64,000 bases of DNA from Macrostomum lignano (Eukaryota): the NCBI GenBank assembly GCA_002269645.1, contig NIVC01002192.1:62001-126000 (forward strand). The letters run 5' to 3'. Below the pieces are notes generated by a model, which was not told where the DNA came from, did no database searches, and saw only the letters and a program-made list of their open reading frames with translations. Both the position numbers and the translations under genes were made by a program. Shown one piece after another: positions 5,720 to 61,600 of the stretch (position 1 is its first letter; each line of letters begins with the position of its first letter).

Positions 5720-8269
5720 TCACTCTGGCAGCAGGGTGTCGTCCAGCTCCTCGTCCGCGAACTCGTCCACCGGGGCGCGCCTCGCCGCCGTCCTCGGGCG
5801 CTCGCGCTCCGCTCCCAGTGGGTCCTCGTAGTCCATGCTGGGCTGCTGCTGCAGCGGCTGCCGCTGCTGCTGGTGCGGCTGCGGCGGCATTTGCGCCTGA
5901 GGCCGGTAGCCGCCGGTGCCCGCCGAGTTCTCTCTGCTGCCCGCCTGGCCAACGACGCTGCTGCGCCGTCCAGCGCTGGCCTGCCGCTGCTCTCGGGCCT
6001 CCTGGCTCTTCTCGGCTTTCTTCAGTTTGGCAGTGTATTCGGCCGCCTCGTCCAGGCCGAGGTCGGTGCTGATCCGCACCAGAAACTTCAGGCATTCAAC
6101 ATTGTCTGGGAAGCGCCTGTGCACGGACTTGTAGGTCTCCAGAGCCACCTGGTAGTTGCCGCTGCGCCTGTGGCAGCTGGCAATCATCAGCGGCCACTTC
6201 ACCTGGCCTGGCTGCATCATGGCGGCCCGCTCAAAGTAACCGATGGCCTTCTCGCAGAACTGCGCCTCGATGTAGTAGGCGCCCAGCCACTCGATCACCT
6301 GGAAGAGCAAAGCGGTAGGGGTCTCGACTTGAAATCACGTAAGTCTTAAACTAAACCAGCTCATTCCTAATAAGGATATGTTGTTAGGCAAGCCTAAATC
6401 ACAGAAGGCACCCCGTCCACTTACATCGAGGTTGGCCGGATAGTATCTGAAGGAATCGTAGTAGTAGGAGAACGCCTGCGACTTGTCACCCTCATCCTCG
6501 CAGAAAGCGGCCAGACGCTGCAGCAGCTTGGGGTCGGTGGGCAGAATGCCGTTCAGCTGCAGGTACCACTCCTGCGCCTGGTTGCGCTCGCCAATCTTCT
6601 CGAACACATCGGCCAGCTGGTAGATGACCTGCGCCGAGTTCTTGAAGATTGTGTGAAGCTTCTGAAACGCGTCCAGAGCCTCTTCCATGCGGCCCAGCCG
6701 CTTGTTGACCAGGCCCAGGTTGTACAGAGCCTCTACACAGGAGCTGTCGTTGTTCAGTGCGTCGTTGTAGAAGTCGCGAGCCCTTTCGAAGTCCTTCTGC
6801 TGGTAGAACACGTTGCCCTTGTTGACCAGAGCGGCCGGATTGTACCTGTCAGCCTGCAGCGACTGGTCAGCATACTTGTCCGCCTGCTGGAGGTTGCCTT
6901 CCAAGTAGTGCAGGAACGATAAATTCACTCCGGCAGCGGAGGCCAGCCGGGTGTCCTTTTTCTCGAAGGACTTCAATGATTCGATGGCTTTGCGGTGGAG
7001 AGACTCCTCACCTTGGTGGAAGTCCCGCTGCTTGAGGAACATCATGGCCTTGTCGATCTCCAGATCGTGGCCGATGTTGAGGAAGGCGGAGGACTTTACC
7101 TGGTCGATGCACCAGTCGTAGCCGTCCGAAAAAGTCTCCTCGATGACCGGCGCGATAATCTTGGCAGCCATCTTGATGCGCCGCTCAGCGTCCTGCTCCC
7201 TCTCCATCTCCACTTTGCGCAGGTCGTCATTGCGGATGACTTCCTGAATGAGCTCCGTCTGCCTATCGCTGTTGGGCGCGAGGGTGTAGCGGTCCGGGTC
7301 ACCCAGCTTCAAGTCGACGGAGAGCATCTTTGTGAAAGCCATCTTCATCATGTTCCTTTCGTTAATGGTGTAGTAGCACAGCAACAGGTTGAAGCCAGTT
7401 TTGAAGTCCGGCTGCTCTTGCATGATGTGCTCGAACGACGTGATGGCGTCGTGCACCTGACCCATCTTGATGAAGGCAATGCCGATGTTCTGCATGATCT
7501 TGATGCGCAGGCTTTTGTGCGTGTTGGGGATCTGATCCAGGGCCATACGGTAGAACTTGATGGCCTTGGCGAACTGCTTCTGCCGGAAGTAGATGTTGCC
7601 CATGTTGACCTTGAGTCTCCCGGCGTGGGCAAACATCTTGTTCTTCACGATGGCCTGATAGGCATTGAGGGCCTCCTGGTACATGTCATTCGCCTGGTAC
7701 TGATTGGCCAGGTTGAATAGAACCATGTACGTCAGGTCCATGTTTGCCTGGTCCGTGCTGCTCAGGTCCTCTCGCTTCCGCAGCAGGTCCTTCTCCTTCT
7801 TGGCTGCCTCCTTCGCCTTCTGCAAGGCGGCGCCCTTTTCGCCACGCGACAGCGCCAGACAGGATTCTTCAACCAGCTGCACCACCTCCTTCTCCAGCGC
7901 CCGGATCTTCTCCTCCGGACTGTTATCCGCCTTGGCCTCGAGCGGCGGCGCCGGTCGAATGTCGCCAGCGGATCCTTTGCGAGCGTTGCGGGTGAAGCCG
8001 GCGGCTCGCACGGCGGTCATCGGCCGGGCCTCGGTGCCGGCAGCTCCGGCCCCGACCTGTCCGGTGCGCAGGCCGGCCCGCGTGCCCGTTGGCGGCGGCT
8101 TCCCCGCGGTGCCGGCGGCAGCGATGTTCGGGGCCCGCCTGCCGTGGCTGGTGCGCACAGCCTGCTGCACGGACTCGTCCCGGAGAATCTCCTCGGTGTT
8201 CAGAGCGGAGTACTCGTTAAAGCCGCCGTATAGGTCGTCCTCATCCTCCATGGCGTCGAATTGGTTCAT
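5720..8269 (-). CDS. IFT88: Intraflagellar transport protein 88 (TPR protein). Exons 8269-6425 and 6298-5720; possible 24-nt micro-intron at 7011-6988
   Basis: Recognisable IFT88 motifs (EARPMTAVRAAGF, GRLKVNMGNIY, ADRYNPAALVNKG, VIEWLGAYYIEAQFCEKAI, KWPLMIASCHRRSGNYQ). A 126-nt phase-0 GTAAGT...CAG intron at 6424-6299 joins the two ORFs in frame. Confidence 0.97.
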
Positions 8270-29680: not shown

Positions 29681-30103
29681 TCACGCCAGCAGCTGCAGGA
29701 ACTCAACGTAGTTGATGAGGCGCCGGCCGTCGCAGCCTCCGCAGTTCTCGGCGCCGACATCCCGCAGCTGGCGGCCCAGCTTGCGCGCGGCCGCGGCCGC
29801 CTCTTCGACGGTGAGGAGGCCGTCGGAGTCCGCGTCGGCGGCCCGAAATTCGGCCAGGCGGCCGAGGTCCGGCAGCGGCCGGCGCAGGTGGACGTCGGCG
29901 GCGGCCTCGAACTCGGCGAAGTCCACGCAGCCGCTGGCGTCGCTGTCCACCCGGCCGAGAATGCCGGCCACCTCAGCCTCCTTCAGGCGGCGCCCGTTGG
30001 CGCTGGCACCGAAAGCGCGCATCAGGGCGCCGAACTCGCGCAGGTCGAGGCTGCCGTTGCCGTCGACGTCGAAGGCGTTAAACAGGTCGCGGCTGCTGCT
30101 CAT
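29681..30103 (-). CDS. Intronless calmodulin-like EF-hand protein, 140 aa
   Basis: Three canonical loops (DVDGNGSLDLREF, DSDASGCVDFAEF, DADSDGLLTVEEA) and a degenerate fourth (..INYVEF). Confidence 0.88.
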   Translation of the reverse strand: MSSSRDLFNAFDVDGNGSLDLREFGALMRAFGASANGRRLKEAEVAGILGRVDSDASGCVDFAEFEAAADVHLRRPLPDLGRLAEFRAADADSDGLLTVEEAAAAARKLGRQLRDVGAENCGGCDGRRLINYVEFLQLLA

Positions 30104-40600: not shown

Positions 40601-43600
40601 GTGGCCGAGTAGGCGACACCCGGCCGCAGGCGGAGGCTTTGGAGCGTCTGCAGGCTGGCGTTGCTGCCGGCGAAGGCCAGGCGGCCGTCGAGCACGTGGA
40701 CGGAGCTGAAGTAGCCGACTTTGCCCTGCAGAGGTTCGCGGAGACGGACGGAGCTGGTGGACTGGTCGGTGGCGAGGTTTCGGGCTGGCCTTTGAAAGCT
40801 GGGAAGCTGGTCTAATCGGGATGATGAAGCTATGGGATGAATGCAAAAATGACAAAAAAGCGCAGGTTGAGGAAGCTAATTAAGGCGGGGAAGGTAATAA
40901 AGTGAATGAGGAAACTGAGTGAGCTGGTGCAGCTGAGAGACCTGATGAAGCTTGTAAGGCTGGTGAAGCTGAATTAGCAGAAGTGGATGAAACAAAGGAT
41001 GTTGATGAAGCTGATGAAGCTGATGAGGCTGATGAGGCTGATGAAGTTGATGAAGGCTGATGAGGCTGACGAAGCTGATGAAGCTGATGAGGCTGATGAG
41101 GCTGATGAAGCTTATGAGAAGCTTATGAGGCTGATGAAGCTGATGAGGCTGATGAAACTGGTGAAGCTGATGATGCTGATGAAGCTAAGAAAGCTGATAA
41201 CTCTAACGAAGCCAAACAAGTTACTGATGAGGAAGCTGAGGGAGGCTTGGCAGCAAGATTTCGCACCGCTCTCACGTCGGCCAGGACTGCCAGAACGCCG
41301 CTCTGCTCAGCCGGGATGAAGCTGATCTTCAGCTGGTTCAGCGTTGTCAGGTCGGCCACATCCTCAACCGGCAGCGTCAGGGAGTCGTTCCGGCCGAACT
41401 GCCTCACGTACTCGAGCTGCGGGCGGTGCGAGGGCGGATGCTGTGAGAAGACCGCGCAGATCTCTGAGTTGCTATGGGGGTGCTCAGAGGCTCAGGAGAC
41501 TCACCGAGTTGACCCGGTCGGCCAGGGACCGCAGGCTCAGCCGGGTGCTGTTGATCTGCCGGCGCAGCTCGTCAAGCCGCTGCCGCAGGCCGCGCAGCTG
41601 GTCGGTCAGGCTGGGCGGCCCGGCGCTCGAGTTGCCCGACGGCCGCAAGGCGCGCCGCATCGCCTGGAGGTTGTCGCGGAGCTCCAGCACTGCGGACAGT
41701 GTCAATGGACTGATATGGATTCATAGCATTGATGGATTCATATCATTGATGGATTGATAGCATTAATGGATTCATAGCATTGATGGATTGATAGCATTGA
41801 TGGATTGATAGCATTGATGGATTGATAGCATTGATGGATTGATAGCATTGATGGATTGATAGCATTGATGGATTGATAGCATTGATGGATTGATAGCATT
41901 GATGGATTCATAGCATTGATGTATTGATAGCATTGATGGATTGATAGCATTGATGGGTTGATAGCATTGATGGATTGATAGCATTGATGGATTGATAGCA
42001 TTGATGGATTCATAGCATTGATGGATTGATAGCATTGATGAATTGATAGCATTGATGGATTGATAGCATTGATGGATTGATAGCCTTGATGGATTGATAG
42101 CATTGATGAATTGATAGCATTGATGAATTGATAGCATTGATGGATTGGTAGCATTGATGGATTGATAGCATTGATGGATTGATAGCATTTATGAATTGAT
42201 AGCATTGATGGATTGATAGCATTGATGAATTGATAGCATTGATGGATTGATAGCATTAATGTGTTGATAGCATTAATGGATTGATAGCATTAATGGATTG
42301 ATAGCATTGATGGCATTGCCAACTCTGCTACGTTGTCGCCAGTGAGCTCAAGCAGGCGAGCCCAGCCCCAATCTGAGCACTGCTCAGGCCACTCAACCCC
42401 AACCTGAGCACTGCTCAGCCCACTCAGCCCCAACCTGAGCACTGCTCAGGCGACTCAGCCCCAACCTGAGCACTGCTCAGGCCACCCAGCCCCAACCTGA
42501 GCACTGCTCAGGCCACTCAGCCCCAACCTGAGCACTGCTCAGGCCACCCAGCCCCAACGTGAGCACTGCTCAGGCCACTTAGCCCCAACCTGAGCACTGC
42601 TCAGCCACTCAGCCCCAACCTGAGCACTGCTCAGGCCACTCAGCCCCAACCTGAGCACTGCTCAGGCCACTCAGCCCCAACCTGAGCACTGCTCAGGCCA
42701 CCCAGCCCCAACCTGAACACTGCTCAGGCCACTCAGCCCCAACCTGAGCACTGCTCAGGCCACCCAGCCTCAACCTGAGCACTGCTCAGGCCACTCACGC
42801 TTGTCATCGTTGAGCCGCAGGTCGGTGCTCGCCTTCGCCTTCCTCCTCTTGATGGCCTCGGAGTCGGCCCGGATCTCCTCCCTGCTGGCCTCCAGGCCCA
42901 CCAGCTTGGCCCGGATGTCCTCCTGCCGCGCTCGGCTGGAGTTCGCCTGCTGCAGCTCCGACAACCGGACCTGCGCTGCAGTAGGGGGGGGGGTGAGTCC
43001 GCCAGTTGCTACTTGCAGTAGAAGGCAAAATACCTTGCATTTTTCTGTGTAAGAGATGCGTCCACTACAGAAATCAGGTTCTCAGGAGTGATCTCACTCT
43101 GGTTCTCAGGAGTGATCTCACTCTGGTTCTCAGGAGTGAGTTCACTCGGGTTCTTAGGAGTGATCTCACTCTGGTTCTCAGGAGTGAGCTCACTCTGGTT
43201 CTCAGGAGTGAGTTCACTCGGGTTCTCAGGAGTGATCTCACTCAGGTTCTCAGGAGTGATATCAGTCAGGTCTCAGGAGTGATCTCACTCAGGTTCTCAG
43301 GAGTGATCTCACTCTGGTTCTCAGGAGTGATCTCACTCAGGTCTCAGGAGTGATCTCACTCAGGTTCTCAGGAGTGATCTCACTCCCAGCCGCACTCACT
43401 CACCCGAGTCCGCAGTCTCCCCGAGCTCCGTCACCACCGCGTCGGCTTCGGTAGAAAATTTCGGCTGTCGGAACTGCAGGGCCCGGGAGTTGAGCTCGTT
43501 GATCTGGAGGCTCTTCTCCCGCACCTTGTCGGCCACGGCTGCGGGGGGTCGGATGCGGGAGGGGGCGGGACTGCGTCTGCTACTGAGGCAAGTAGCGATT

Positions 43601-46600
43601 TGCGGGACACTGGGTTTGAAATTTTTTATGTCCCCCTGCACCTGCAACTCACCCTGCACCTGCAACTCACCCTGCACCTGCAACTCACCCTGCACCTGCA
43701 ACTCACCCTGCACCTGCATCTCACCCTGCACCTGCAACTCACCCTGCACCTGCAACTCACCCTGCACCTGCATCTCACCCTGCACCTGCAACTCACCCTG
43801 CACCTGCTTCTCCGCCACCCGGGCCCAGTTGGAGTTGTTGATGGCGTCCAGCCGGAGGCGGGTTGAGTTGTCGATCTCCAGCAGCGCCGCCCGGGCCATG
43901 TTCGCCAGGAAGGTCGCCCTCTCGGCGGTCTTCTTCGAGGCCACCGCCATGCTGCCGCTAGTCTGCAGCAGCGGGTAGCCGGGGGCTGACAGCAGCGGCT
44001 GGAGCACGACCTTCGCGAAGACGTGGACGTTCTGCATGTCCTGCACCTTGGCCTCCACGGCCCGCCGCGCCTCCTCCAGGTTCATCGCGGCCACCACCTC
44101 GCGCCGGGAGCGCCGGAGCGCCAGCTGGACGCCGACGATGGCGGAGCTTCTGGACAGGTCGCGGAGCTCGCCGTGCGCCTTGTACACACGGGCCCGGAGA
44201 CCGTCCAGCTCGGTGGACTCCGACAGGTTCGTCAGCCACTGTGGGGTTGGGTGAACTTCTCTGAGATCCCAGCTCAACCTCAATGAGATCCCAGCTTAAC
44301 CCCAATGAGATCCCAGCTCAACCTCAATGAGATCCCAGCTCAACCCAATGAGATCCCAGCTCAACCTCAATGAGATCCCAGCTCAACCTCTCTGAGATTC
44401 CAGCTCAACCTCATTGAGATCCCAGCTCAACCCCAATGAGATCCCACCCAGCTCTATCTCAATGAGATCCCAGCTCAATCAACCCCAATGAGATCCCAGC
44501 TCAACCTCATTGAGATCCCAGCTCAACCTCTCTGAGATCCCAGCTCAACCTCATTGAGATCCCAGCTCAACCCTAATGAGATCCCAGCTCAACCCTAATG
44601 AGATCCCAGCTCAACCTCTCTGAGATCCCAGCTCAACCCTTGTAGTGCATGCGCCCTTGTCAGTTGGCAGGGCGCGTTGCACTTTGGGGCTGGTTGGGGG
44701 AGTTGGCGGGCGTGGCAGGGTCTGGCCCCCGGCCGGGCTTTGCGCGTGCCCCTCCCCAGCCGTGCCCCTGCCCCGTGCTCAGGGCTGGTTGGCTGCGGCC
44801 GGGCCAGCTTTGGCACGGGTGCAGCCCCTCCCCCCTTAGGCGGGGTTTTGATTGGCTGGGCCGGCGTGGTTTGTTTTGGTGAGCTTAGCCGGTGGGGCCG
44901 TCTGCCCCAGGGTTTGGGTGCTATTTATGGTGCGACTCTGGCTCTTGCCCACCACCTGCGTGCTTTTTGTGTTTTGGTGTGCTCCGAGAGTGCAAGCGCG
45001 AGACCTGATAAAAGAAACAGCAACATTAGCTACTTTGATAAAAGAAACAGCAACATTAGCTACTTGGATAAAAGAAACACAATAGCCTAATTGAGAAGAG
45101 TCTTGGAGAATTAAGAAGAAGTCGGAAACTGCGCTTGAGACCTGCGAATAATAAACGGTGAACAGTCATCTGGCCACTGGTAAGCCGCCTGCTGTTTGAG
45201 TCCTTTCTTTCCGGGAAGCTTGCTAGGCCGAATTCTTGCCAGAGCGTCATAACGCCGGGAGACCATATAGCTTCTGTAGTACGGTACCGTTTATCATATA
45301 TATTGCGTACGCCCTACGGTATAGAGAATAGAAGCACTCGAGAGTGTCACCACACCTCGAGCCGCAGCGTGAACTCTGAGTGTCACAACACCAGAGGGAT
45401 CGAATTATTATCGCAGAGCGTCGCCACGCCTGCTCGTCGTATTCATAAAAGTACAGACAGAGCGTCACTACGCCTGTTATATCACATATAATATATATTG
45501 TACTCGGGACTGGGCACCCAAGCCGACCCGGGTTACAACAAATTGGCGCCCGAACAGGGACCCTGTCCCCAAAGATTGAAAGTCGGCTCAGTTGCTTTCT
45601 ATGAAAATTGCTGTCATATTGTGAGCGTTTTTTCTTATTAAAACGACTGTTGCTTATCGCTTGCGGCTATTGCCCTACCGCAAAAGACATTGATCACGGT
45701 GACAGACAACTGATTGGTTATCAGAGATCGATAGCTATCACCACCTCAGAGTAAAGAGTAGCAACGGTATTCAGTGACTTCGGCCATGGGTGATCAAGCT
45801 ATGGACCAACTGATCGATGCGCTGGCTGCGCGCCTCAGAGCCAACGCCGACCGAGCAGCGCCACGACTCTCGAAGCCGCCCAAGTACATACCAACGATGA
45901 ATTTCAGCCTATGGCTGCAGAGTTTCAACGAGTACTGCGAGGCTGTCGGTATAGAAGAAGAAGCCAGACGGCCGCACCTGATCGGCCTACTCGACCTCAC
46001 AACAGCCTACGCTGCCGTTGATAAGCTGGACTTGGCAGACGACATCGAGTACGGGGAATTCACGGATGCACTACTGGCGCGGTTCACCATGAACAGAACA
46101 GCCCAGGACTACCGTTTTGAATTATCGAATCGAGATCAGCTAGACAAGGAGTCTGTGGAGACCTACGGGGACGAGCTGCTGGAGTTGGTGCGCAATGCCT
46201 TCCCCACCGCGGATGCCGACACCAGGACAGAGCTGGCGAAAGACAGATTTCTAAAAGGCGTTCGAGTAACCGACACTGTCCGAGAAAGACTGTACCTGCA
46301 GCAGCCGGCCAACCTCACCGATGCCATTCGAACAGTAAGACAACTTGAAGCAGCCCAGAAGGCGTCTTCGACCCAGTCCAAAGCCAGACCCAGGGCTGGG
46401 CTGAATGCCTTTGCCACCGAAACGTCGACAGGTGACACCGGCAAAGACGAGGAGCTACGCCAACTGCGTCAAAAAGTAAAGGAAATGGAAGAAAAGATCC
46501 GACGGATGGAGCAGATGCAGCAGGGCCAGCAGGAGCCGCCCGAACCCGGCCTTCAAGACAAGCAACAATCCAAGCAGGCGGCTCCGTCCAGCTCGAAGCA

Positions 46601-49600
46601 GCGTAGCGGTGTCAAGTGCTACAACTGCGGGGAGATAGGCCATCTCTCATTCCAGTGCCCAAAGCCGGGAAAAGGCAAGAGGGGCCCACCAGCTGGAGGC
46701 AAGTGAGCCCCTGCAATTCGTCAGCCTCCGAACAAGCCGTCATCGCATCTCATCATCATCAAACGCCCGGTACCGCATCTCATCAGCCTCCAGTGTCCGG
46801 TACTGCGCCTCATCAGAATCCAGTGTCCGGTACTGCGCCTCATCAGCCTCCAGCGTCCGGTACTGCGCCTCATCAGCATCCAGTGTCCGGTACCGCGCTT
46901 CATCAGCCTCCAGTGTCCGGTACTGCGTCTCATCAGCCTCCAGTGTCCGGTACAGCGTCTCATCAGCCTCCAGTGTCCGGTACTGCGTCTCATCAGCATC
47001 CAGTGTCCGGTACTGCGCCTCATCAGCATCCAGTGTCCGGTACTGCGCTTCATCAGCATCCAGTGTCCGGTACTGCGCCTCATCAGCATCCAGTGTCCGG
47101 AACAGCGTCTCATCAGCCTCCAGTGTCCGGTACTGCGTCTCACCAGCATCCAGTGTTCGGTACAGTACCTCATCAGCATCCAGTGTCCGGTACTGCGTCT
47201 CATCAGCCTCCAGTGTCCGGTACAGTACCTCATCAGCATCCAGTGTCCGGTACTGCGGCTCATCAGCATCCAGTGTCCGGTACTGCGCCTCATCAGCATC
47301 CAGTGTCCGGTACAGCGTCTCATCAGCCTCCAGTGTCCGGTACTGCGTCTCATCAGCCTCCAGTGTCCGGTACAGTATCTCATCAGCATCCAGTGTCCGG
47401 TACTGCGTCTCATCAGCATCCAGTGTCCGGTACTGCGCCTCATCAGCATCCAGTGTCCGGTACTGCGTCTCATCAGCCTCCAGTGTCCGGTACTGCGTCT
47501 CATCAGCATCCAGTGTTCGGTACAGTACCTCATCAGCATCCAGTGTCCGGTACTGCGTCTCATCAGCCTCCAGTGTCCGGTACAGTACCTCATCAGCATC
47601 CAGTGTCCGGTACTGCGTCTCATCAGCATCCAGTGTCCGGTACTGCGTCTCATCAGCATCCAGTGTCCGGTACTGCGCCTCATCAGCATCCAGTGTCCGG
47701 TACTGCGTCTCATCAGCCTCTAGTGTCCGGTACTGCGTCTCATCAGCCTCCAGTGTCCGGTACTGCGTCTCATCAGCATCCAGTGTCCGGTACAGTGCCT
47801 CATCAGCCTCCAGCGTCCGGTACTGCGTCTCATCAGCATCCAGTGTTCGGTACAGTACCTCATCAGCATCCAGTGTCCGGTACTGCGTCTCATCAGCCTC
47901 CAGTGTCCGGTACAGTACCTCATCAGCATCCAGTGTCCGGTACTGCGTCTCATCAGCATCCAGTGTCCGGTACTGCGTCTCATCAGCATCCAGTGTCCGG
48001 TACTGCGCCTCATCAGCATCCAGTGTCCGGTACTGCGTCTCATCAGCCTCTAGTGTCCGGTACTGCGTCTCATCAGCCTCCAGTGTCCGGTACTGCGTCT
48101 CATCAGCATCCAGTGTCCGGTACAGTGCCTCATCAGCCCCCAGCGTCCGGTACTGCACCTCACCATCAACTAGCCGGTTTTGCACAGTCGCAGCGCCCAA
48201 TCACCGTCAACGCACCTCAGTCAATTCAAATCAATCCTGCGTCGATATATGTTACGGCCTCAATCGCAGGGCGGAAGGTGAACGCGCTAGTGGACTCGGG
48301 AGCTTCCTGCACCATTATCTCACGGGAAGCTTACCAAAGTATGCCGAAACAGAGCGTCAGAGATTTGGCCGGTGCTGAAGGCTACGTTAGCTTAGCAAAC
48401 GGCAGCCCGATCGAAATCGAGAGAACAGTCCTGTTGCGACTGTCAATCGCTGATAAAGTAATAGATACTCCAGCCTTGGTAGTCAGCGGAGTGAAGTACC
48501 AACTGGTATTGGGATCCGACTTCTGCAGGGACAACAGTTGCGTCATCGACTACAAGACAGCTGTCTTTTCAGTGCAGGACACTGCAATCCCGTTCCGATG
48601 GCAAGCTGAGCGCCCGATCGTTTGCAGAATTTTGGCGACAAGGTCCAGCACAATACCGCCAGGTCATCAAGCAGTTCTGTCAGCAAGGCTGGAGAGCAAA
48701 GGACGACGGAACAGAGGGTGTGTCGGTCTAACTGAGAATCTCGGGGCGAACGATTTGGCAGCTGGCCGCTGGCTTGCTAAGGCCTTAGTGATCCCAAATA
48801 GCGGCAGCCGTCTGCCGACTCGACTCATCAATATCACGGAGGAGCCAGTCAGAATTCGCCAAGGTTGTACGCTCGGGTGGTTCTGCCCCTAGAATCCACC
48901 GAACCGTTGAACACCATCAAGCTCTTAGCCGTAGAGTCAGGAGACGATCCACAGGAAGAGCCGAAGTTCCAAGGCAGCGACAGCCCTTCGGAAGCAGACT
49001 TGCTACCAAACTCGTACGGCGACTGTGGACTGTCGACGAAAGAAGACGAAGAATTTAGAATCCTTGTCCGGAGTTACGGCGATGTGTTCACGACCAAGCA
49101 GACTTCAAGCAAGTTAACTACCGTGGTGGAGCATGAAATTAACACCGAGAATGCGCGCCCAATCAAGATCCCACCGCGTCGTCTGCCTCCCCACTTACAG
49201 CCAGAAGTAGATCGTCAAGTCAACGAGTTGCTGGAAAAGGGGCAGATCGAAGAAGCACAGTCACCATGGTGCTTTCCTTTGGTGTGCGTAAAGAAGAAAT
49301 CAGGGGAAATGAGGATGTGCGTCGATTATCGGAAGTTGAATGAGGTCACCGTCAAGGATGCAGTGCCGATGCCGAGGGTCGATGATGCGCTGGAGGCAGT
49401 ACACGGCGCCAAGATCTTCTCGACAATGGACCTTCACAGCGGGTTTTGGCAAGTAGGGGTGAGACCTCAGGATCAGGACAAGACGGCGTTTGCAGTGCCG
49501 CATCGCGGACAATTTCGATGGAAGGTTATGCCGTTCGGCTTAGTGAACAGCCCAGCAACATTCACCAGGTTGATGGCAGCCGTTTTGGACAAGCAGATGT

Positions 49601-52600
49601 GGAAAACCTGTCTCGTCTACATCGACGATCTACTGGTTTGGTCAACCGACGTGGATGAACACCTGAGAAGACTGGAGGAAATATTCAGCAAGTTGCGGCA
49701 AGCAAATTTGTGCCTGAAGCCCCAGAAGTGTCACTTTTTGCAAAAGCAAGTGAAATTTCTCGGTCACACGCTGTCGGCTGCTGGCATCAGTACCGATGAG
49801 GAGAAAGTTCAAGAAGTGAAGAACTGGCCAACACCGCGATCCTCGACGGAGCTGCATTCATTCTTGGGCCTGTGTGGCTATTACAGAAAGTTTATTAAAG
49901 ATTTCGCCGCAATAGCAGCGCCTCTAACTCGGTTGACAACAAAAGACGCAAAGTTTGAATGGAAAACGGAACAGCAGCTGGCGTTCGAAACATTGAAGGA
50001 ACGAATGACAAGTTCAGAGGTTATGGCTCATCCGGATTTCTCCCCGGATGCCGGAGAGTTTATCCTCGATACTGATGGCAGTTCGAAGATGGGCATAGGA
50101 GCGGTACTTTCTCAAGTCCAGCCAGATGGAGCAGAACGAGTGATCGCCTATGGGTCCAAGACACTAAATCAAGCCGAACGCAACTATTGTACGACTCGTT
50201 TAGAACTACTAGCGGTTGTGACTTTCATCATGAAGTTCAGATACTATCTGCTGGAAAAGCGTTCTGTCTGCGAACGGACCACAGCAGCCTGCAATGGTTA
50301 AAAAACTTCAGTGACGCCGAGGGACAGGTTGCTCGCTGGTTGGAGAAGTTGGCTCATTTCAGTACCGCATCGTTCACAGACCAGGTCGATCGCATGGCAA
50401 CGCGGACGCAATGTCGAGGAAGCCAGTACGGAGACATTTCGGAGCGGAGACATGCCCGGCATGTGCGCAGCATCCAGAAGGACTAAATGCAGTCGAATTT
50501 GAACGATTCTCAGCCGGCAATCTGGCAAGCGAGCAGGATCAAGACGACGATTTGAGAACAGTAAAGGAAGCGCTTGGCTCAAACCCAGTCCAGATAAAAG
50601 CGAGACAGCTTGGAGTCCACTGGCTAGAGCCGTCTGGACTCGAAAAGACGACCTGGTGCTGCAAGAGAAAGTGCTCCTTGTGAGAAACAAAGACAGGCGC
50701 GATGAGTATCAAATGGTGCTGCCACGAAAGGCATTGGATCGTATCTTGAAAACCCTACACGAGGGAGTGGGAGGTGGCCACATGGGCTTTGCGAAGACAA
50801 AATTTAAAGTGCTTCAGCGCTACTGGCGTCCAGGATTGTCTCGTGCCATTGAAGAATATATTCGCGGTTGTGCCACCTGCTGCAAGTCAAAGCCGGGCAA
50901 GCGAAACCGAGCACCCCTGCAACCGTTGACATTCGCAGCACCATTCGATTGCGTCATGATGGACATTGTCGGGCCGCTACCGCGGAGTAAGGCTGGAAAC
51001 ATTTATCTCCTGACAGTCCAAGATTCGTTTACGAAGTGGCCTGACGCGTACCCGCTTCGCAACCAGAAGGCAAGGACGGTGGCAAGGGCGCTTTTCAATC
51101 GATGGATTAGCCAGCATGGATGTCCGAGTACTTTGCACAGTGACCAAGGAAGGAACTTCGAATCGCAAGTGATGCGCGAAATGTGCAGGATACTCGAGAT
51201 CCGCAAGTCCAGAACCACAGCTTATCATCCGAGCGGAAATGGACAAGTAGAAAACTTCAATAAAAGTTTAAAATCCATCCTCAAGTGCTGCCTAGAGGAC
51301 TCAGGACGAAACGACTGGGAAGAATTCGTCAGCTCTGCGTTAATGGCGTACCGATCAAGCGTGCATCGAGCAACGGGTTATACTCCCCACTACATGGTCT
51401 ATGGCACGGAGATGCGCCTACCGATAGACTTGACTGACCAGCCGCCACAGCCTGTCGATTCGCATGTAAATTTCGTCAAGGAGCTAGAAGACAAATTGCA
51501 GACAGCTCATCGCGCTGCTCGACAGCAGTTGAATACTTATCAGCGGCGACAGAAGGACCAGTACGATAAAAGAACCCGAGGATCCGATATTCAGGAGGGT
51601 GACCATGTCTTCGTCTACAGCCCCGCCCTGAAACCAGACGAAGCCGCAAAGTTTCACGTAAGCTGGCTCGGCCCAGTGAAGGTGCTCGAAAGAAGATCCG
51701 AGGTGCTCTTCAAAGTGGAAAACCCGTCAAATCGTAAAAAGTCGAAGTTCGTCCACTTCAACAACCTCCGGAAGTTCGCTCGACCGGCCGCCCTGGAAAC
51801 ACCAGTTAGGACCGCGGCACCGCCGGAGGTGGTCGACGAGACGGACTCGGAGACAGAGGCGGAATGCGAGACTTGGACTCGGCCTCAACTGATGCCGCCA
51901 CAGGACGCCGAGGAAGTCGCCGAGGTGCTGGAAGAGCAGATGGAGTTGGTTGACGACCCGCAGCCTACTCATAACCCGGTGGAAGCTGCACCTGAGCCTC
52001 GAAGGTCCGGAAGGTTGCGACGGCCGCCGGATCGCTACGGCCAGCCAGTGACATTCTAATGGGTTACTCGTCATCGTGAAGTCTCATCAGTTTCATATGC
52101 GATTATCGTTAAAAGCCAGAAAAATATTTCGCGAATGCGTCATTCATCATAAATACGAGTACTTCATCAATGCATCATTCATCATGAGTACGAGCAGTTC
52201 GCCAATGCGTCATTCAAGAAATTCGTTAATGCGTCATTAAGTCATTTTAATCGCATCTTCATCGAAGTTTTGACGAGAATCAAATTTTGCCTACAAAATC
52301 TATGCATCGGTGGAGGGTATTCGGACTGGCATCCGGTGAAAACTCGAATTTGCGCTGGGACTTTACGATGCAGGGCCACGGTCCGAGGAGATGACGCTCT
52401 GGCAAGAGGGGAGCAGGAGTAAAATCTGGAGTCAGGGACAGTGTGTCGCAGGTTTGAGTACGTTGCTTTGCAGATGGATTTGTACGCTGTCCTCCAAGTC
52501 GGACACACAGCCGAACGTGCCGAGATCAGGCGAGTCTATCGACAGCTAGCGCTCTTCTGGCACCCGGACAAGCACCCGGACAAGGAACTCGCAGGACGCC

Positions 52601-55600
52601 GTTTCCAAGAAATTGAGACTGCTGGTAGAATTCTATCGTGTCCATATCGCCGAGCGATGTACGACCAGTTGGGCGATAAATCAATCCCGTATGACGAGGC
52701 TGTAACCTTCGCAATGACGTTCATACCTCCTACTGGTGTAAGAATGCCGGCGGACATCGAAGAGGGAGTACAGCAAAGGCGAGAAGTTGAAGAAGCTCAG
52801 CGCAAGGAAGCTGGTCTCAGGCAGGGGAGACAGGGACAGAGGAACGATTACGAAGCGGATGGCTACATTCTAATCTCGGACGACGATGAGAGCGAGGAGT
52901 CGGATGAGTGTAGCATCGACACAGAAGAAGAAGACGAGTTGCTGGCATCGGATGGCTCCTCCGGAAGTAGTGAGTCAGAAGCTATGGAGATCGATGTACC
53001 GGAAAGCAAGGAGGTTGTCTCACATCGCGCGTCGGGAGCAATATGGGATGATGAAAAGCTGTCGTTATCGGCAGCTGCGCGTCAGCTCCGCCATCGTTTG
53101 ATGAAGCATATTTTGGCTGGACAGTCGGACGGAATCGTGTCAGTGCTCACGGCTATGAGACGGCTGTTTCGAGACTCGCAGCGAGAACCGAGGAGCGCAC
53201 TGTCAATGGTCCTGCTGCAGGCGTTGTTCTTCATCCGCAGAGATATCGCTCCGGTAAAGCGTCAGAGAGCAGGCCGCCGTTACTGGTCTAGGCAGAGTTT
53301 TGATTGTTTCGTCCGACAGCTCTGTCACGAGCTCATCCCGCTGTTCGGTTTGCGCCGGCCCGGCAGGCTGCTCGAGGTCCTGAAAAGCTGCGTCGGTCTC
53401 CCTGGACTTCGGGTTCGCTAGGGTGCCCAGTTCCGATTCATACCGTATTTTCTGCTTAATTGTACGTATGTTGTTACGCTCGTACTGTATGGGTTTATTT
53501 GCATGCTAGTGGGGTCAAGCTTCCTGGGGGAATGGCTCAGCAGCTGTGCGGCGCCAGTGCGCTTCCTGCCGGCTTCTGCGGCGGCCACTTGCGCGTCCTG
53601 CCGGCCATCTGCGCGCCTCGCCCGGCCGCCTTCGCGTCTTGCCGCGGCCACCTGCGTGTCCTGCCGGCCACTTGCGCGTCCTGCCGGCCACCTGCGCGTC
53701 CCGCCCGGCCACCTGCGTGCCCTGCCGGCCATTTGCACTTCCTGCCGGCCACTTGCGCGTCCTGCCGGCCACCTGCGCGTCCCGCCCGGCCGCCTTCGCG
53801 TCTTGCCGGCCACCTGCGTGCCCTGCCGGCCACCTGCGTGTCCTGCCGGCCACTTGCGCGTCCTGCCGGCCACCTGCGCGTCCCGCCCGGCCACCTGCGT
53901 GCCCTGCCGGCCATCTGCACTTCCTGCCGGCCACTTGCGCGTCCTGCCGGCCACTTGCGCGTCCTGCCGGCCACCTGCGCGTCCCGCCCGGCCACCTGCG
54001 TGCCCTGCCGGCCATCTGCACTTCCTACAGGCCATCTGCGCGTCCTGCCGGCCACCTGCGATGGTTTTCTGTGGCGCCAGCTTTGATGTAAAGCCTATTC
54101 CGTGCCCCGTGGTTGCTCTGACGAACTTGCGTGCAGAAAACCAGTATTTTTTTTTCATATTTCTTTTGCGGCAACCATTTTTCTTTTTCCCCTTTGCATT
54201 AGTTTGTTTCCAATTTTTTTGTTGTTTTTGATTTTTTTGCTTTGTTATTTAAAAAATTTGGAATCCCAGTCGCCGTGGTTCGAGCTCCGCCCTGTTTTTT
54301 TTGTAGGAGGGGAGGGTGTAGTGCATGCGCCCTTGTCAGTTGGCAGGGCGCGTTGCACTTTGGGGCTGGTTGGGGGAGTTGGCGGGCGTGGCAGGGTCTG
54401 GCCCCCGGCCGGGCTTTGCGCGTGCCCCTCCCCAGCCGTGCCCCTGCCCCGTGCTCAGGGCTGGTTGGCTGCGGCCGGGCCAGCTTTGGCGCGGGTGCAG
54501 CCCCTCCCCCTTAGGCGGGGTTTTGATTGGCTGGGCCGGCGTGGTTTGTTTTGGTGAGCTTAGCCGGTGGGGCCGTCTGCCCCAGGGTTTGGGTGCTATT
54601 TATGGTGCGACTCTGGCTCTTGCCCACCACCTGCGTGCTTTTTGTGTTTTGGTGTGCTCCGAGAGTGCAAGCGCGAGACCTGATAAAAGAAACAGCAACA
54701 TTAGCTACTTTGATAAAAGAAACAGCAACATTAGCTACTTGGATAAAAGAAACACAATAGCCTAATTGAGAAGAGTCTTGGAGAATTAAGAAGAAGTCGG
54801 AAACTGCGCTTGAGACCTGCGAATAATAAACGGTGAACAGTCATCTGGCCACTGGTAAGCCGCCTGCTGTTTGAGTCCTTTCTTTCCGGGAAGCTTGCTA
54901 GGCCGAATTCTTGCCAGAGCGTCATAACGCCGGGAGACCATATAGCTTCTGTAGTACGGTACCGTTTATCATATATATTGCGTACGCCCTACGGTATAGA
55001 GAATAGAAGCACTCGAGAGTGTCACCACACCTCGAGCCGCAGCGTGAACTCTGAGTGTCACAACACCAGAGGGATCGAATTATTATCGCAGAGCGTCGCC
55101 ACGCCTGCTCGTCGTATTCATAAAAGTACAGACAGAGCGTCACTACGCCTGTTATATCACATATAATATACATGTATATTGTACTCGGGACTGGGCACCC
55201 AAGCCGACCCGGGTTACAACACCCTAATGAGATCCCACCCAGCTCAACCCTAATGAGATCCCAGCTCAACCTCTCTGAGATCCCAGCTCAACCCTAATGA
55301 GATCCCATCTCAACCTCTCTGAGATCCCAGATCAGCACCACTAACATCCCTGCTCACCTCCAAGGACGCATTCAACCGGTCGTTGGCGTCGCCAGCGTTG
55401 GCCTGAAGGCGCCGGACCTCCGCCGCGTCACCTTCGGCCGCGGTGCTCAGCGCAGTGATCTCGGTGCCCAGCTGAAGCAGCCGGACATCAGCGGCGCCGG
55501 CGCCGTCCATCGCAGCTCCAGTGAGGTTGAGCGCGGCCGTCAGGTAGGATGAGGCGTAGGAGATCCCCAGAGACTGGGAGCCGGCCTCGGCTGTGCCCGC

Positions 55601-58600
55601 ACTGATCCGGGCCTGCACCTCGGCCAGCCGACTTTTCACTGATGGGTTGGGTGGGGGTTACGGGATCTGTCAGACTCAGGCTCAAAGCTTATGGAGCATT
55701 CAACTTCGCAATACGTACTGGCCTGCTCCTGCGACAGGGTGCTGTTGTGCCGGTCCTTCACCGGGATCAGCACCCGGTTCTTCCGGGTCCAGAAGTCCTC
55801 GGTTTTTTTCGCCAGCAGCTGAGTGGCCTCCAAATAGTCCGGCTGGCTGACAAAGGCATCGCCGCGAGACTTGCTGGCCTCCAGCTGGCGGAGGAAGTCT
55901 GCGGGATGGGGGCGGTTGGTGGCTTAGGTTAGTAGGCATGGGCAAGGGTTTGCTGGGTAGGGGTGTGTGGGGCAGGGTTTGTGGGGCAGGAATGTGTGGG
56001 GCAGGGGTTTGTGGGGCAGGGGTTTGTGGGGCAGGGGTTTGTGGGGCAGGGGTTTGTGGGCAGGAATGTGTGGGCAGGGGTTTGTGGGCAGGGGTTTGTG
56101 GGGCAGGGGTTTGTGGGGCAGGGGTGTGGGGGCAGGGAATTGTGGGCAGGGGTGTGTGGGGCAGGGGTGTGGGGGGCAGGAGTATGGGATTCGATCAGGG
56201 GCGAAGTGGCTCTCAGTCGGGGCCAACGCACCGGTTGCATCCGCGTCCATCAGCTGGCTGGAGTTCTGCAGTGACTGCAGGCTGGTCAGGGCCTCCTCAG
56301 CCTGGTCTCTGGTGTCATTCTGGTCCTTCATCAGAGCCAGAGTCTGGAATTAGCCAGTTTTCAATACCACAGCTCAAATAAATCTCCAGAATGACAGGCG
56401 AATCTGCCAGCGAGCTCACCTGAGCATCTTCGGCTTCCTGTCGCTTCCTGAGCTGGTCGAGTTTCTCCTGCACCGGGCCGAGGCCCACGTCGCGACCTCC
56501 TTCGCTGGCGAGGGTGGCGGCTTCGGCCTGCAGGGCGGGGAATGGGAAGAGGACTGAAGAGGAAAACTGGGATACTCGGAACAGCGGGTGAGGGGGGAAG
56601 TGGGATAAGTTTTTGAAACTAACAAGCGAGCCAAATCTGATCCTTGAGGCTGAAATCTGTGCTGCGGCGCAAAATTACTTGCTGTAAGCGCCGAAATGAT
56701 TGCTGTAAGCGCTGAAATGAGTGATGTAAGCGCCTAAATGAATGCTGTAAGCACCGAAATGATTGCTGTAAGCACCGAAATGATTGCTGTAAGCGCTGAA
56801 ATGAGTGATGTAAGCGCTGAAATGAGTGATGTAAGCGCCAAAATGATTGCTGTAAGCACCGAAATGATTGCTGTAAGCGCCGAAATGATTACTGTAAGCA
56901 CCGAAATGATTGCTGTAAGCGCCTAAATGAATGCTGTAAGCGCCTAAATGATTGCTGTAAGCGCCGAAATGATTGCTGTAAGCACCGAAATGATTGCTGT
57001 AAGCACCGAAATGATTGCTGTAAGCGCTGAAATGAGTGATGTAAGCGCCTAAATGAAGAGAACATATGAGTAAAGGCTTCCTATACTAAAGAGGGGGGGG
57101 GGCGGTTTCGCCATCATGACACTGAGCAGCCTCACATCGAACTGCTGCAGCTCCGAGTCGATCCGCACCAGCAGCCGCTCCAGCTCGCTGCCGTTGAGCA
57201 CCGCGGCCTGGTCGGCCCGCAGCCGCTGCAGACTGGAGTTGGCGGAGTCGGTGCTGTCGATCAGCATGAAGATGCAGCTGTCGCAGACTTTGCAGCCGCC
57301 CTGCGGGGTGTTCAGCCAGCCGCGCCGGCAGATGTCGCAGCGCTCGCCGCGGACCCCGTCGACGCACTGGCACTGGCCCGTGACATTGTCGCAGCCGGCG
57401 AAGTTCGCGCCGATGCAGCTGGTGCACTCTGGGGGCGCGGGCGGCGTGGGATTCCGTTATGGGCTGGCCAGATCCCGGTAAAGAATTCCTCAGACTGATG
57501 GGATATCTTCTCTTGGACACAGAAATCCTCATGCTGGAATCCCAACACAGAAATCCTCATGCTGGAATCCCAACACAGAAATCCTCATGCTGGAATCCCA
57601 ACACAGAAATCCTCATGCTGGAATCCCAACACAGAAATCCTCATGCTGGAATCCCAACACAGAAATCCTCATGCTGGAACCCGAACTCAGAAATCCTCAA
57701 GCTGGAATCCCAACACAGAAATCCTCATGCTGGAATCCCAACACAGAAATCCTCATGCTGGAATCCGAACTCAGAAATCCCAATTAAACCCCAAATCTCA
57801 GAGATCACAATGTTTAATCACAAACCCCTAAATTGAAATCCCCCCTCTCACCTGTGCACCCGTCAGGTCCGTAGCCATAGTAACCGGGCAGGCACCGGTC
57901 GCACTTGTCGCCGGTGACGCCCGGCCGGCACTGGCACAGGCCGGTGTCGCGGTCGCACTGCGAGCTCAGGCTGGCGTTGCCGCAGCCGCAGTCGCGACAG
58001 CCGCCGGCCGACCCGAAGCCCCAGCGGTCGGGCTCGCACTCGGAGCAGCGGGCGCCGCTGACGCCCTGACGGCAGAGGCACTCGCCAGTGCGTCGGTTGC
58101 ACTTCACGGTGCCGTTGCGGTCGCAGGCGCAGTCTGGAGCAGAATGGGGAGTTGAGCTCGGGGTCTGCGAGACCTGCCGCTAATTAGGGAGTCGCAGCGT
58201 GAAGGGTTCGCTGTCTGACACAGTCTGACACTATCTGACACTGTCTGCACAGTCTGACACAGTCTGACACTGCCTGACACAGTATTACACAGTCTGACAC
58301 AGTATTACACAGTCTGACACAGTATTACACAGTCTGACACAGTATTACACAGTCTGACACAGTATTACACAGTCTGACACTGCCTGACACAGTCTGACAC
58401 AGTCTGATACAGTCTGACACTGCCTGACACAGTCTGACACAGTCTGATACAGTCTGACACAGTCTGACACAGTCTGACACAGTCTGACACAGTCTGACAC
58501 AGTCTGAAACAGTCTGACACAGTCTGACACAGTCTGACACTGCCTGACACTGCCTGACAGTCTGACACTGCCTGACACTGCCTGACAGTCTGACACTGCC

Positions 58601-61600
58601 TGACACTATCTGACACAGTCTGACACAGTATTACACAGCTCTGACACTGCCTGACACTGCCTGACACAGTCTGACACAGTCTGACACAGTCTGACACAGT
58701 CTGACACAGTCTGACACTGCCTGACACTGCCTGACGGTCTGACACTGCCTGACACTGTCTGACACAATCTGACACAGTATTACACAGCTCTGACACTGCC
58801 TGACACTGCCTGACACAGTCTGACACTGCCTGACACTGCCTGACAGTCTGACACTGCCTGACACTGTCTGACACAGTCTGACACAGTATTACACAGCTCT
58901 GACACTGCCTGACACTGCCTGACACAGTCTGACACAGTCTGACACAGTCTGACACAGTTTGACACTGCCTGACACTGCCTGACAGTCTGACACTGCCTGA
59001 CACTGTCTGACACAGTCTGACACAGTATTACACAGCTCTGACACTGCATATCCTTTAATTAGACCCTTTTCGATCAGACACACGGGCCGTCGGAAAAGTA
59101 TCAGGGGCGGATGAGAGTATGGCTCACCTGTGCAGTTCTTCGCGTCCACTGAGTCGCCGAACATCCAGTCGGTGCACAGCTCGCAGTAGTAGCCAGTGGA
59201 GTTCTGGCAGCGCAGGCACTCGCCAGTGATATTGTGACAGGAGCCCGGCTCCATCAGGATGTTGCCGCTGCACGGGCAGGGTTGGCAGGGCAGGTTGCGA
59301 GCCGGGTCGCCATAGTAACCGGGCTTGCACCTGGCAGGGTTCGGTTTAAACTGATTATTAATCTACTAGTATTAATTTCAAGTTAATAATCTGAGCACAA
59401 GTACGTAGCCTCTATTTTTGCAATTTTATCGATCCGCTCTGACTGGCAGTGTACGCACCCACCACCCCATTTTATCGATCCGCTCTGATCGGCAGTGTAC
59501 ACACCCACCACCCCATTTTATCGATCCGCTCTGACTGGCAGTGTACGCACCGACCACCCTATTTTATCGATCCGCTCTGTTTGGCAGTTTACGCACCCAC
59601 CACCCAATTTTCTCGATCCGCTCTGACTGGCAGTGTACGCACCGACCACAATATTTTATCGATCCGCTCTGTTTGGCAGTTTACGCACCCACCACCCAAT
59701 TTTCTCGATCCGCTCTGACTGGCAGTGTACGCACCGACCACCCTATTTTATCGATCCGCTCTGTTTGGCAGTTTACGCACCCACCACCCAATTTTCTCGA
59801 TCCGCTCTGATAGGCAGTGTACACACCCCATTACCCCATTTTATCGATCCGCTCTGATAGGCAGTGTACACACCCCATTACCCCATTTTATCGATCCGCT
59901 CTGATCGGCAGTGTTCAGGATTCCAATAAACAGATTTGAGGTAAATAACGAACAGGAACTCACCTCTCACAATTCACCCCATCGTATCCCTCTTTGCAGG
60001 TGCAAATATCCATATCGCTACCAAGCGCTTCGCATCTCTCGGCGAAATTCCTCGGGCAGCGGGGATATCTTTGCAACGCGGAGTTCAGGAAGTGCGGGCA
60101 CTGGCTACTGCTGCAATGGTCGGGTTGGCGGGTTCTCTGAATGTTTATAAAAGGAGAGAAAGTGCAAGTAGTGCTACTGTTAGTAAATTAAAGAAAAGCG
60201 GGGAATATTACTTGGACACGGCTGGCCCGGGGCAGCGGCAGGGCCGGCAGATTGTCTTCCCATCGGACCCGGTTTCAATCACGTGACCCGGCGGGCAGAC
60301 CTCGCACTTCTTGCCGTAGAAGCCGTCGCGACAGTTCTGGAAAGTTAAAGTGCTTGTGAGTTGGGAATGGGGTGGGATTCTGATGGGGTGGGATTCTGAC
60401 GGGATGGGATTCTGATGGGATGGGATTCTGGTGGGATGGGATTCTGATGGGATGGAATTGTGATGGGATGGGATTCTGACGGGATGGGATTGTGATGGGA
60501 TGGGATTCTGATGGGATAGGATTCTGATGGGATGGGATTCTGGTGGGATAGGATTCTGATGGGGTGGGATTCTGATGGGATGGGATTCTGATGGGATGGG
60601 ATTCTGGTGGGATAGGATTCTGATGGGGTGGGATTCTGATGGGATGGGATTCTGATGGGATGGGATTCTGATGAGGTGGGATTCTGATGAGGTGGGATTC
60701 TGATGGGATGGGATTCTGATGGGGTGGGATTCTGATGGGGTGGGATTGTGAAGGGATGGGATTGTGATGGGATGGGATTGTGATGGGATGGGATTGTGAT
60801 GGGATGGGATTGTGATGGGATGGGATTCTGATGGGATGGGATTGTGAAGGGATGGGATTGTGATGAAATGGGATTGTGAAGGGATGGGATTGTGATGGGA
60901 TGGGATTGTGAAGGGATGGGATTGTGATGGGATGGGATTCTGATGGGGTGGGATTCTGATGGGGTGGGATTGTGAAGGGATGGGATTGTGATGGGATGGG
61001 ATTGTGATGGGATGGGATTGTGATGGGATGGGATTCTGATGGGATGGGATTGTGAAGGGATGGGATTGTGATGAAATGGGATTGTGAAGGGATGGGATTG
61101 TGATGGGATGGGATTGTGAAGGGATGGGATTGTGATGGGATGGGATTGTGATGGGATGGGATTGTGATGGGATGGGATTGTGAAGGGATGGGATTCTGAC
61201 GGGATGGGATTGTGATGGGATGGGATTGTGAAGGGATGGGATTGTGAAGGGATGGGATTGTGATGGGATGGGATTGTGATGGGATGGGATTGTGATGGGA
61301 TGGGATTGTGATGGGATGGGATTGTGATGGGATGGGATTGTGATGGGATGGGATTGTGGTGGGATAGGATTCTGATGGGATGGGATTGTGATGGGATGGG
61401 ATTGTGATGGGATGGGATTGTGAAGGGATGGGATTGTGATGAAATGGGATTGTGAAGGGATGGGATTGTGATGGGATGGGATTGTGACGGGATGGGATTG
61501 TGACGGGATGGGATTGTGAAGGGATGGGATTGTGATGGGATGGGATTGTGATGGGATGGGATTCTGATGGGATGGGATTCTGATGGGGTGGGATTCTGAT

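Follow-up and report, generated by a model that had tools for sequence, protein, structure and literature searches.

This analysis concerns a 64,000-nucleotide stretch of the Macrostomum lignano genome (contig NIVC01002192.1, positions 62,001 to 126,000; hereafter the window), in which a Ty3/Gypsy retrotransposon with long terminal repeats (LTRs) carries, downstream of gag and pol, a third open reading frame (ORF3) whose product begins with a J-domain. We conclude, with near certainty, that ORF3 goes back to a single capture of a cellular J-protein gene by one Ty3/Gypsy clade, in which it is an old accessory gene that selection has maintained. As to its function, the reading that we favor, with a rough probability of 45%, is that ORF3 works in the nucleus as an adaptor, recruiting Hsp70 to SUMO/H3K9me silencing complexes and so countering silencing.

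ORF3 across copies, lineages and genomes

ORF3 is not a one-off insertion. In the family to which the window copy belongs (family A), it lies 403-665 nt downstream in 25 of the 27 integrase matches at an identity of at least 95%; of the two exceptions, one ceases to match 114 nt past the integrase stop and the other is a truncated integrase match. A genome search with ORF3 itself gave 127 matches from 126 scored candidates, 21 of which were full-length at an identity of at least 99%. The analysis covered 30 of these 127 matches as loci, together with representatives of further groups, the remainder being short matches to the J part alone. Copy counts overstate the number of insertions, since M. 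lignano is described as a hidden allotetraploid and its assembly as redundant (PMC12801592). The stop codon was found to be polymorphic: when 20 other copies were translated from the ATG, the product had 315 aa in 12, 344-566 aa in 7 whose stop is changed, and 179 aa in 1 with a premature stop.

Diverged ORF3 homologues also follow the integrase in lineages B, C, D, G, N1, N4 and L044/L055 of the same genome, and the integrases of the ORF3-bearing lineages are 46-77% identical. The lineage B ORF3 reaches 79% over the J part, and full-length matches number 14 for lineage D, 17 (at 98% identity or more) for G and 15 for N4. Both G and N4 are complete LTR elements with ORF3 inside, with LTR identities of 99.3% and 99.85% and 4-bp target-site duplications (TSDs). 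This TSD length is found in all three ORF3 lineages checked, and the primer-binding sites of three checked lineages differ (window 45544-45561; L048 after 3377; L050 after 2693). Common to all ORF3 lineages are a J-domain, then a CP/DP-F/Y-x-R-x-x-Y signature and then a C-terminal domain; the HPD motif of the J-domain is intact in most of them.

The ratio of non-synonymous to synonymous rates (dN/dS), determined by the Nei-Gojobori method on real copies, was 0.08 (J part), 0.12 (linker, where dS is saturated) and 0.24 (C-terminal domain) between families A and B. Comparison of C1 with C2 gave 0.24 over 327 codons (integrase 0.25), N4a with N4b 0.27 (integrase 0.19), and the N1 pair 0.28 (integrase 0.76, one copy being decayed). 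Between subfamilies ORF3 is thus not neutral: it has been under purifying selection, with dN/dS values similar to those of the integrase. The copies within family A differ by 3 synonymous and 7 non-synonymous changes, a neutral ratio that is uninformative on selection, as expected of very young copies or of assembly errors.

In the integrase tree, elements without ORF3 are nested within ORF3-bearing groups; D and L043, and likewise N4 and L039, are sister lineages of which only the first has the gene. In three elements (L039, L043 and L046), no ORF3 remnant was present in the ~1.7-1.9 kb read past the integrase. Placement of two ORF3-less lineages with the outgroup was rejected (approximately unbiased test, p-AU 6e-82), and these two are therefore losses. 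The supported groups of the ORF3 tree (N4 + L044; C1 + C2) agree with the integrase tree, its deeper nodes being unsupported. The simplest reading is one gain of ORF3 followed by several losses. A J-domain donor tree (78 columns) neither recovered nor rejected a single clade of the 14 element J-domains (p-AU 0.29).

These data also bear on the view that ORF3 is a host DnaJ cDNA carried without function, or an assembly artefact. The family A polymorphism, which is not skewed to synonymous changes, and the loss of ORF3 in several lineages would fit such a passenger. It is contradicted by the purifying selection between subfamilies and by the retention of ORF3 across lineages whose integrases are about 50% identical. 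Among the cellular J-proteins searched (a scan for further domains took in 84 of the 145 from the protein search), none was found to be a host parent of the C-terminal domain, and ORF3 occurs in contigs of four sequencing runs from four studies. The dN/dS values and the tree test refute this view in practice, and we give it next to no weight.

Beyond this genome, 1.84 billion representatives were searched; four non-identical matches, P0006-P0009 from Logan and JGI contigs, include the C-terminal domain, all other matches being generic J-domains; a cluster member, P0155, is a further external homologue. The best matches of P0008 and P0009 in the M. lignano genome are only 43-47% identical; in comparison with the fetched loci, the identities are 42% for P0007 and 50% for P0155. 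Because these identities are low, P0007, P0008, P0009 and P0155 come from other genomes. Metagenome and viral contig scans for the genomic context of the external homologues gave no match. In public gene models (P0005, P0158, P0159, P0160) the protein is named only 'J domain-containing protein' or 'hypothetical', and is fused to pol or to unrelated exons.

Three other loci stand apart from this series. L035 was rejected as an element, being a host DNAJB6-like gene. L058 (G000:C575:334200-336700) encodes a different J-domain protein in a 1374-1449-aa frame, with four long copies and one partial; it lacks the ORF3 C-terminal domain and is a host gene or another element. In L042 (G000:C349:120800-123900), a 550-aa frame, which by eye resembles a LINE endonuclease region and has no Pfam match, breaks a G-type element past its integrase core.

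Modules of ORF3 and their proposed function

In the window copy, ORF3 is organized as follows (positions in the window):

52474..53421, + strand: ORF3, 315 aa, with J-domain, helical extension, acidic linker and C-terminal helical domain
52477..52665, + strand: J-domain, residues 2-64, with HPD at 52561-52569
52867..52902, + strand: SUMO-interacting motif (SIM)-like sequence ILISDDDESEES, residues 132-143
53062..53403, + strand: five-helix C-terminal domain, with the basic loop KRQRAGRR at residues 262-269 (53257-53280)

The complete, HPD-bearing J-domain noted in the initial annotation is matched by Pfam DnaJ over residues 2-64 (E 5.5e-18; 65 bits versus a cut-off of 27.8), with HPD at residues 30-32. 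AlphaFold predicted the J-domain, a helical extension to about residue 120 and the C-terminal helical domain with confidence, and the J part of the model superposes on solved J-domains at an rmsd of about 1 Å. A profile of the ORF3 homologues is nearest to cytosolic class B J-domains such as those of DNAJB1/B2. The label 'Hsp40' given earlier was too strong: a G/F region and DnaJ_C are not present, PF00226 is the sole Pfam match, and the linker is acidic. By its sequence, ORF3 is a class C J-domain protein, not a classical Hsp40 of class A or B. That it is not an Env protein holds: its maximum 19-residue hydropathy is 1.33, the usual threshold for transmembrane segments being about 1.6, the J-domain is N-terminal and there is no env match. 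The most hydrophobic stretch falls within the soluble five-helix domain of the predicted models.

The linker is predicted to be disordered (pLDDT <50 at residues 122-194). Its acidic tract does contain a SUMO-interaction-like motif, as had been proposed, and the pattern is kept in 8 of 12 otherwise unalignable linkers; shuffles lead one to expect 0.19, and it is absent from all 8 acidic tails of integrases. The basic helical domain that could not be recognized before is the C-terminal domain, modeled as five helices (pLDDT 87.8, pTM 0.79) with a conserved basic loop. A Foldseek search of PDB and viral libraries gave nothing at E <= 0.001, and the sequence profiles of the domain matched designed helical proteins only. 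The best structural Z was 9.1 over only 48 residues, and B12-binding cap bundles reached 7-8; such values lie within the generic helical range and do not imply a novel fold. On the strength of the models, the domain appears to be a new folded domain family for which no known relative was found. An origin from DnaJ-X (Djp1/Caj1-like), suggested by an Atlas match of 0.76 (below the lead threshold) and by a Djp1-like top match outside Macrostomum, was rejected (hhalign probability 0.07%; profile -1.3 bits versus one PF14308 member). Pfam scans gave no PF14308 match, the comparison with one member leaving a very remote link possible. The Atlas had no usable match for the lineage G domain.

Two lineages carry further modules. 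In the lineage G ORF3 (L034:1691-2677), which lacks the SIM-like motif, a chromodomain lies between the linker and the C-terminal domain (Pfam Chromo, E 1.4e-12) and is nearest to Swi6/HP1 (E 1.8e-10). In one branch (L040/L054, L044, L055, L057) a TatD-like domain is fused to ORF3 in a frame of about 570 aa. Its GE is kept, and different residues stand in place of the His of PxxxHxR and of the ETD of LLETDAP; with the metal-binding Glu/His/His/Glu/Asp positions taken to have their presumed catalytic roles, the domain is probably inactive as a nuclease. Within this branch N4 lacks HPD and the SIM-like motif, L055 has both, and L057 consists of the C-terminal TatD part only. The HPD-less J part of N4 appears relaxed (dN/dS 0.60, from few changes) versus 0.16 for its C-terminal domain.

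In the mechanism that we favor, the basic loop and the helical C-terminal domain would take ORF3 to the nucleus or to nucleic acid, and the SIM-like motif, or the HP1-like chromodomain in lineage G, would dock it on SUMOylated or H3K9-methylated silencing complexes. The HPD-bearing J-domain would then trigger Hsp70 to dismantle these complexes, and the element would thereby remain transcribed. Three functions had been offered in the initial annotation, and comparative anatomy favors a chromatin or silencing role over particle assembly or reverse transcriptase (RT) activation, because of the conserved SIM-like motif, the HP1/Swi6-like chromodomain of one lineage and the conserved basic loop. 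Further hints at chromatin are that the lineage with the chromodomain is without the motif, and that in N4 motif and HPD were lost together. SUMO-SIM contacts are known to recruit SetDB1/Wde, building piRNA-guided heterochromatin in Drosophila (10.1101/533091), the plant J-protein SILENZIO acts with HSP70 in transposon silencing (PMC8616336), and the T antigen J-domain stimulates Hsc70 (PMC11720896). We tentatively extend the proposal to the whole clade, which may encode a modular anti-silencing chaperone adaptor in which lineages swap SIM, HP1-like chromodomain and dead TatD as the targeting module.

Several points weigh against a counter-silencing role. The SIM pattern was defined after the sequences had been seen, and the lineages are related. 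The G chromodomain retains only two of three cage aromatics, at the positions that we take to form the cage. Multi-copy lineages exist without ORF3 or its J part (L039/L046, L043, L057), and ORF3 is therefore dispensable in cis. A host J-protein can, together with HSP70, promote silencing, as in the case of SILENZIO, so the direction of the effect would not be set by the parts. Localisation, Hsp70 stimulation, SUMO binding and de-silencing by ORF3 are all putative.

The same nuclear features would also fit if ORF3 were an integration factor, residing in the pre-integration complex and guiding it to heterochromatin via the chromodomain or SIM, with Hsp70 stripping the capsid or the finished intasome and the TatD-like module of one branch binding DNA ends. 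Chromodomains of Ty3/Gypsy elements normally lie C-terminal to the integrase (PMC13524379), where the window element has none, and the TatD-like fusion also points in this direction. Contact with the integrase is putative and the ORF3-less lineages are multi-copy, and we consider this role rather unlikely. A cytoplasmic role, in which ORF3 would supply Gag or Pol with Hsp70 so that particles assemble or RT becomes active, seems a little less likely again. It would suit a canonical J-domain nearest to cytosolic class B proteins, and hepadnaviral RT depends on chaperones. It leaves the SIM-like motif and the HP1-like chromodomain unexplained, HPD is lost in the expanding lineage N4 (15 full-length matches), and sister elements of near-identical pol lack ORF3. 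Diversion by ORF3 of the Hsp70/Hsp40 machinery that loads Argonaute or Piwi, as a small-RNA counter-defence, is improbable: Argonautes are indeed loaded by HSP70/HSP40, and in C. elegans there is a J-protein dedicated to a single Argonaute (PMC12908457), but the chromodomain and the TatD-like fusion would be unaccounted for and no Argonaute-binding motif was seen in ORF3.

The window element and the expression of ORF3

The whole element (44641-55221) is a young, complete Ty3/Gypsy element, whose LTR pair differs by 1 substitution plus a 1-bp and a 6-bp indel. Its assignment to Ty3/Gypsy follows from paired TG..CA LTRs, TSD, primer-binding site, polypurine tract, and gag followed by protease (PR), RT, RNase H (RH) and integrase (IN). 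ORF3 does lie inside the TSD-bounded element, between the end of the integrase frame at 52059 and the polypurine tract and 3' LTR (TSD CCCT, 4 bp), and is an intact, intronless frame of 315 aa (52474-53421, + strand) with no internal stop. The other features of the element are:

44637..44640, + strand: 5' TSD, CCCT, inside a 22-bp minisatellite
44641..45540, + strand: 5' LTR, 900 bp, TG..CA ends, from comparison of the LTR pair; TATA-like signal at 44922, AATAAA at 45150
45177..45185, + strand: splice donor CTG/GTAAGC within the 5' LTR
45544..45561, + strand: primer-binding site, presumably matching tRNA-Lys
45786..46706, + strand: gag, 306 aa, with CCHC knuckle; weak Pfam matches to Retrotrans_gag/PNMA
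46607..52059, + strand: pol, in the order PR-RT-RNase H-IN (Pfam)
46748..48156, + strand: 30-bp minisatellite, 47 copies, in frame at the start of pol
52463..52473, + strand: candidate 3' splice site TTGCTTTGCAG, immediately 5' of the ORF3 ATG, from sequence only
53582..54060, + strand: GC-rich 20-bp minisatellite
54305..54316, + strand: polypurine tract
54317..55221, + strand: 3' LTR, 905 bp
55222..55225, + strand: 3' TSD, CCCT

In the window copy, pol is split into three frames (46607-48892, 48802-50301 and 50503-52059), on which the initial annotation was silent; mutation or an error of assembly accounts for the split. Among the 23 near full-length integrase matches of family A, 9 fall in open frames of 1,488 aa or more. 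Pfam matches of the window copy are strong for RT, RNase H and IN and weak for the protease (E 0.006). The 30-bp minisatellite encodes an HQHPVSGTAS-like repeat at the beginning of pol. Between copies, the gap from the ORF3 stop to the LTR ranges from 581 to 1048 nt.

The minisatellite into which the element inserted is flanked by short coding-like segments on the minus strand (43396-44240 and 55340-59254); one of these (58889-59254, - strand) has weak laminin-EGF matches, and the flanking host gene may be a laminin. Further host genes in the window encode an ankyrin-repeat protein (3887-5185, + strand), a TPR protein (5720-8269, - strand), which we take to resemble IFT88, and an EF-hand protein (29681-30103, - strand).

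The ORF3 protein is probably translated from a subgenomic RNA, in which splicing joins the LTR donor to the AG that precedes the ORF3 ATG. YAG lies 0-1 nt 5' of the ORF3 ATG in 5 of 7 lineage representatives, versus 16 of 279 internal ATGs, and 7 and 16 nt before it in the two remaining representatives; under a stricter rule with a pyrimidine tract, the numbers were 4 of 7 versus 28 of 279. The donor CTG/GTAAGC is present in the LTRs of A and G, and N4 has a similar one. A contig of run X1 exits the LTR exactly at this donor and joins host sequence preceded by TTTTTGTTTTGCAAAAG (a pyrimidine tract plus AG), and the LTR donor is therefore used. Non-env ORF3s are, moreover, usually expressed from spliced RNA (PMC5408684). 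Pointing the other way, no donor-to-ORF3 joint was among the joints listed, and contigs of all four runs that cover ORF3, fully or piecewise, span its acceptor unspliced; these runs are only guessed to be RNA or are of unknown type, and contigs lose rare forms. Spliced-leader trans-splicing, which occurs in flatworms, is an alternative route to ORF3 mRNA.

The host joint of the run X1 contig lies at position 1501 of L053 (G000:C1201:308488-311505), with an ATG about 30 nt further and no element sequence in the 1.5 kb upstream of the joint; an LTR-driven chimeric host transcript is likely at this locus. In two LTRs (window 45150-45185; L050 LTR 415-459), the splice donor lies ~30 nt after AATAAA. 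In some retroviruses, a donor placed after AATAAA suppresses polyadenylation in the 5' LTR.

Classification and comparison with known systems

The nearest RT group without ORF3 (54% identity, headed by L056) matches by eye the published family Mlig-id38, and the RT relationship places the ORF3 clade probably in or beside the Gmr1/Osvaldo cluster. Two other identities were rejected: the window-copy integrase carries no chromodomain, as a chromovirus would (lineage G carries one in ORF3), and ORF3, with its N-terminal J-domain, has neither the transmembrane-level hydropathy nor the env match of an errantivirus. Mlig-id38, a Gmr1/Osvaldo family of the same species, has the same PR-RT-RH-IN order and likewise an in-frame repeat before RT, similar to the 30-bp minisatellite of the window pol; it differs in having a heat-shock element and no ORF3 (PMC12801592). 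No canonical heat-shock element was found in the LTRs of the window family, G and N4, and a coupling of ORF3 to heat shock was rejected, also because the heat-induced id38 is without ORF3.

No published J-domain or DnaJ cargo of a retrotransposon was found in the accessible literature, which included few subscription journals. The available portions of the M. lignano LTR survey (PMC12801592) do not mention DnaJ or ORF3, and those of the DARTS paper (PMC8775202) do not mention DnaJ. A catalogue entry for such an element may exist in Repbase, Dfam or GyDB. ORF3 belongs with the non-env ORF3 cargo class known from rotifers, and differs in its cargo. In bdelloid rotifer Ty3/Gypsy elements, a third ORF (GDSL esterase, DEDDy exonuclease or coiled-coil) likewise follows pol inside the LTRs, with lineage-specific gains and losses (PMC5408684), whereas the elements described here carry a J-domain together with SIM-like, chromo and TatD-like modules; 'DnaJ' and 'chaperone' do not occur in the accessible text of that paper (0 occurrences). 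Altogether, the sequence comparisons show ORF3 to be a J-domain accessory gene that is conserved throughout the clade, is under selection and has modules of chromatin type that can be swapped.

Non-env third ORFs are mostly without an assigned function, and we know of few transposon-encoded counter-defences in animals. ORF3 has a catalytic handle for which HPD provides the standard loss-of-function control, its modules have been swapped and sister lineages have lost it in nature, and the animal is amenable to transgenesis (PMC12801592), so that whether and how animal retrotransposons actively undo their own silencing becomes directly testable. If our proposal is true, ORF3 would read SUMO or H3K9me marks and use the host Hsp70 to dismantle heterochromatin on the element.

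This proposed action would parallel that of the polyomavirus large T antigen, in which an adjacent motif holds a host complex and the J-domain activates Hsc70 on it. In T antigen, the J-domain stands beside a short host-binding motif and an acidic tract. It is likewise an HPD J-domain of a mobile element, with the ability to stimulate Hsc70 (PMC11720896). T antigen comes from a DNA virus, and ORF3 differs from it in having no helicase and no conserved LxCxE motif; among the window ORF and the four external homologues, P0009 alone carries one. An HP1-like chromodomain within Ty3/Gypsy is shared by chromoviruses with lineage G only, and is located at the integrase C-terminus in the former and in a separate ORF3, between J-domain and C-terminal domain, in the latter. 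VANC of the VANDAL DNA transposons is likewise an accessory factor that a transposon encodes and that descends from a host chromatin protein (PMC13547354), and the host J-proteins SILENZIO and PKL-JDPs likewise act on silenced chromatin (PMC8616336; 10.64898/2026.09.14.751395). These three are plant systems without sequence relation to ORF3, and SILENZIO and PKL-JDPs promote silencing and are not encoded by elements. Should the counter-silencing reading hold, ORF3 would be the retroelement counterpart of the T antigen J-domain and the animal counterpart of VANC.

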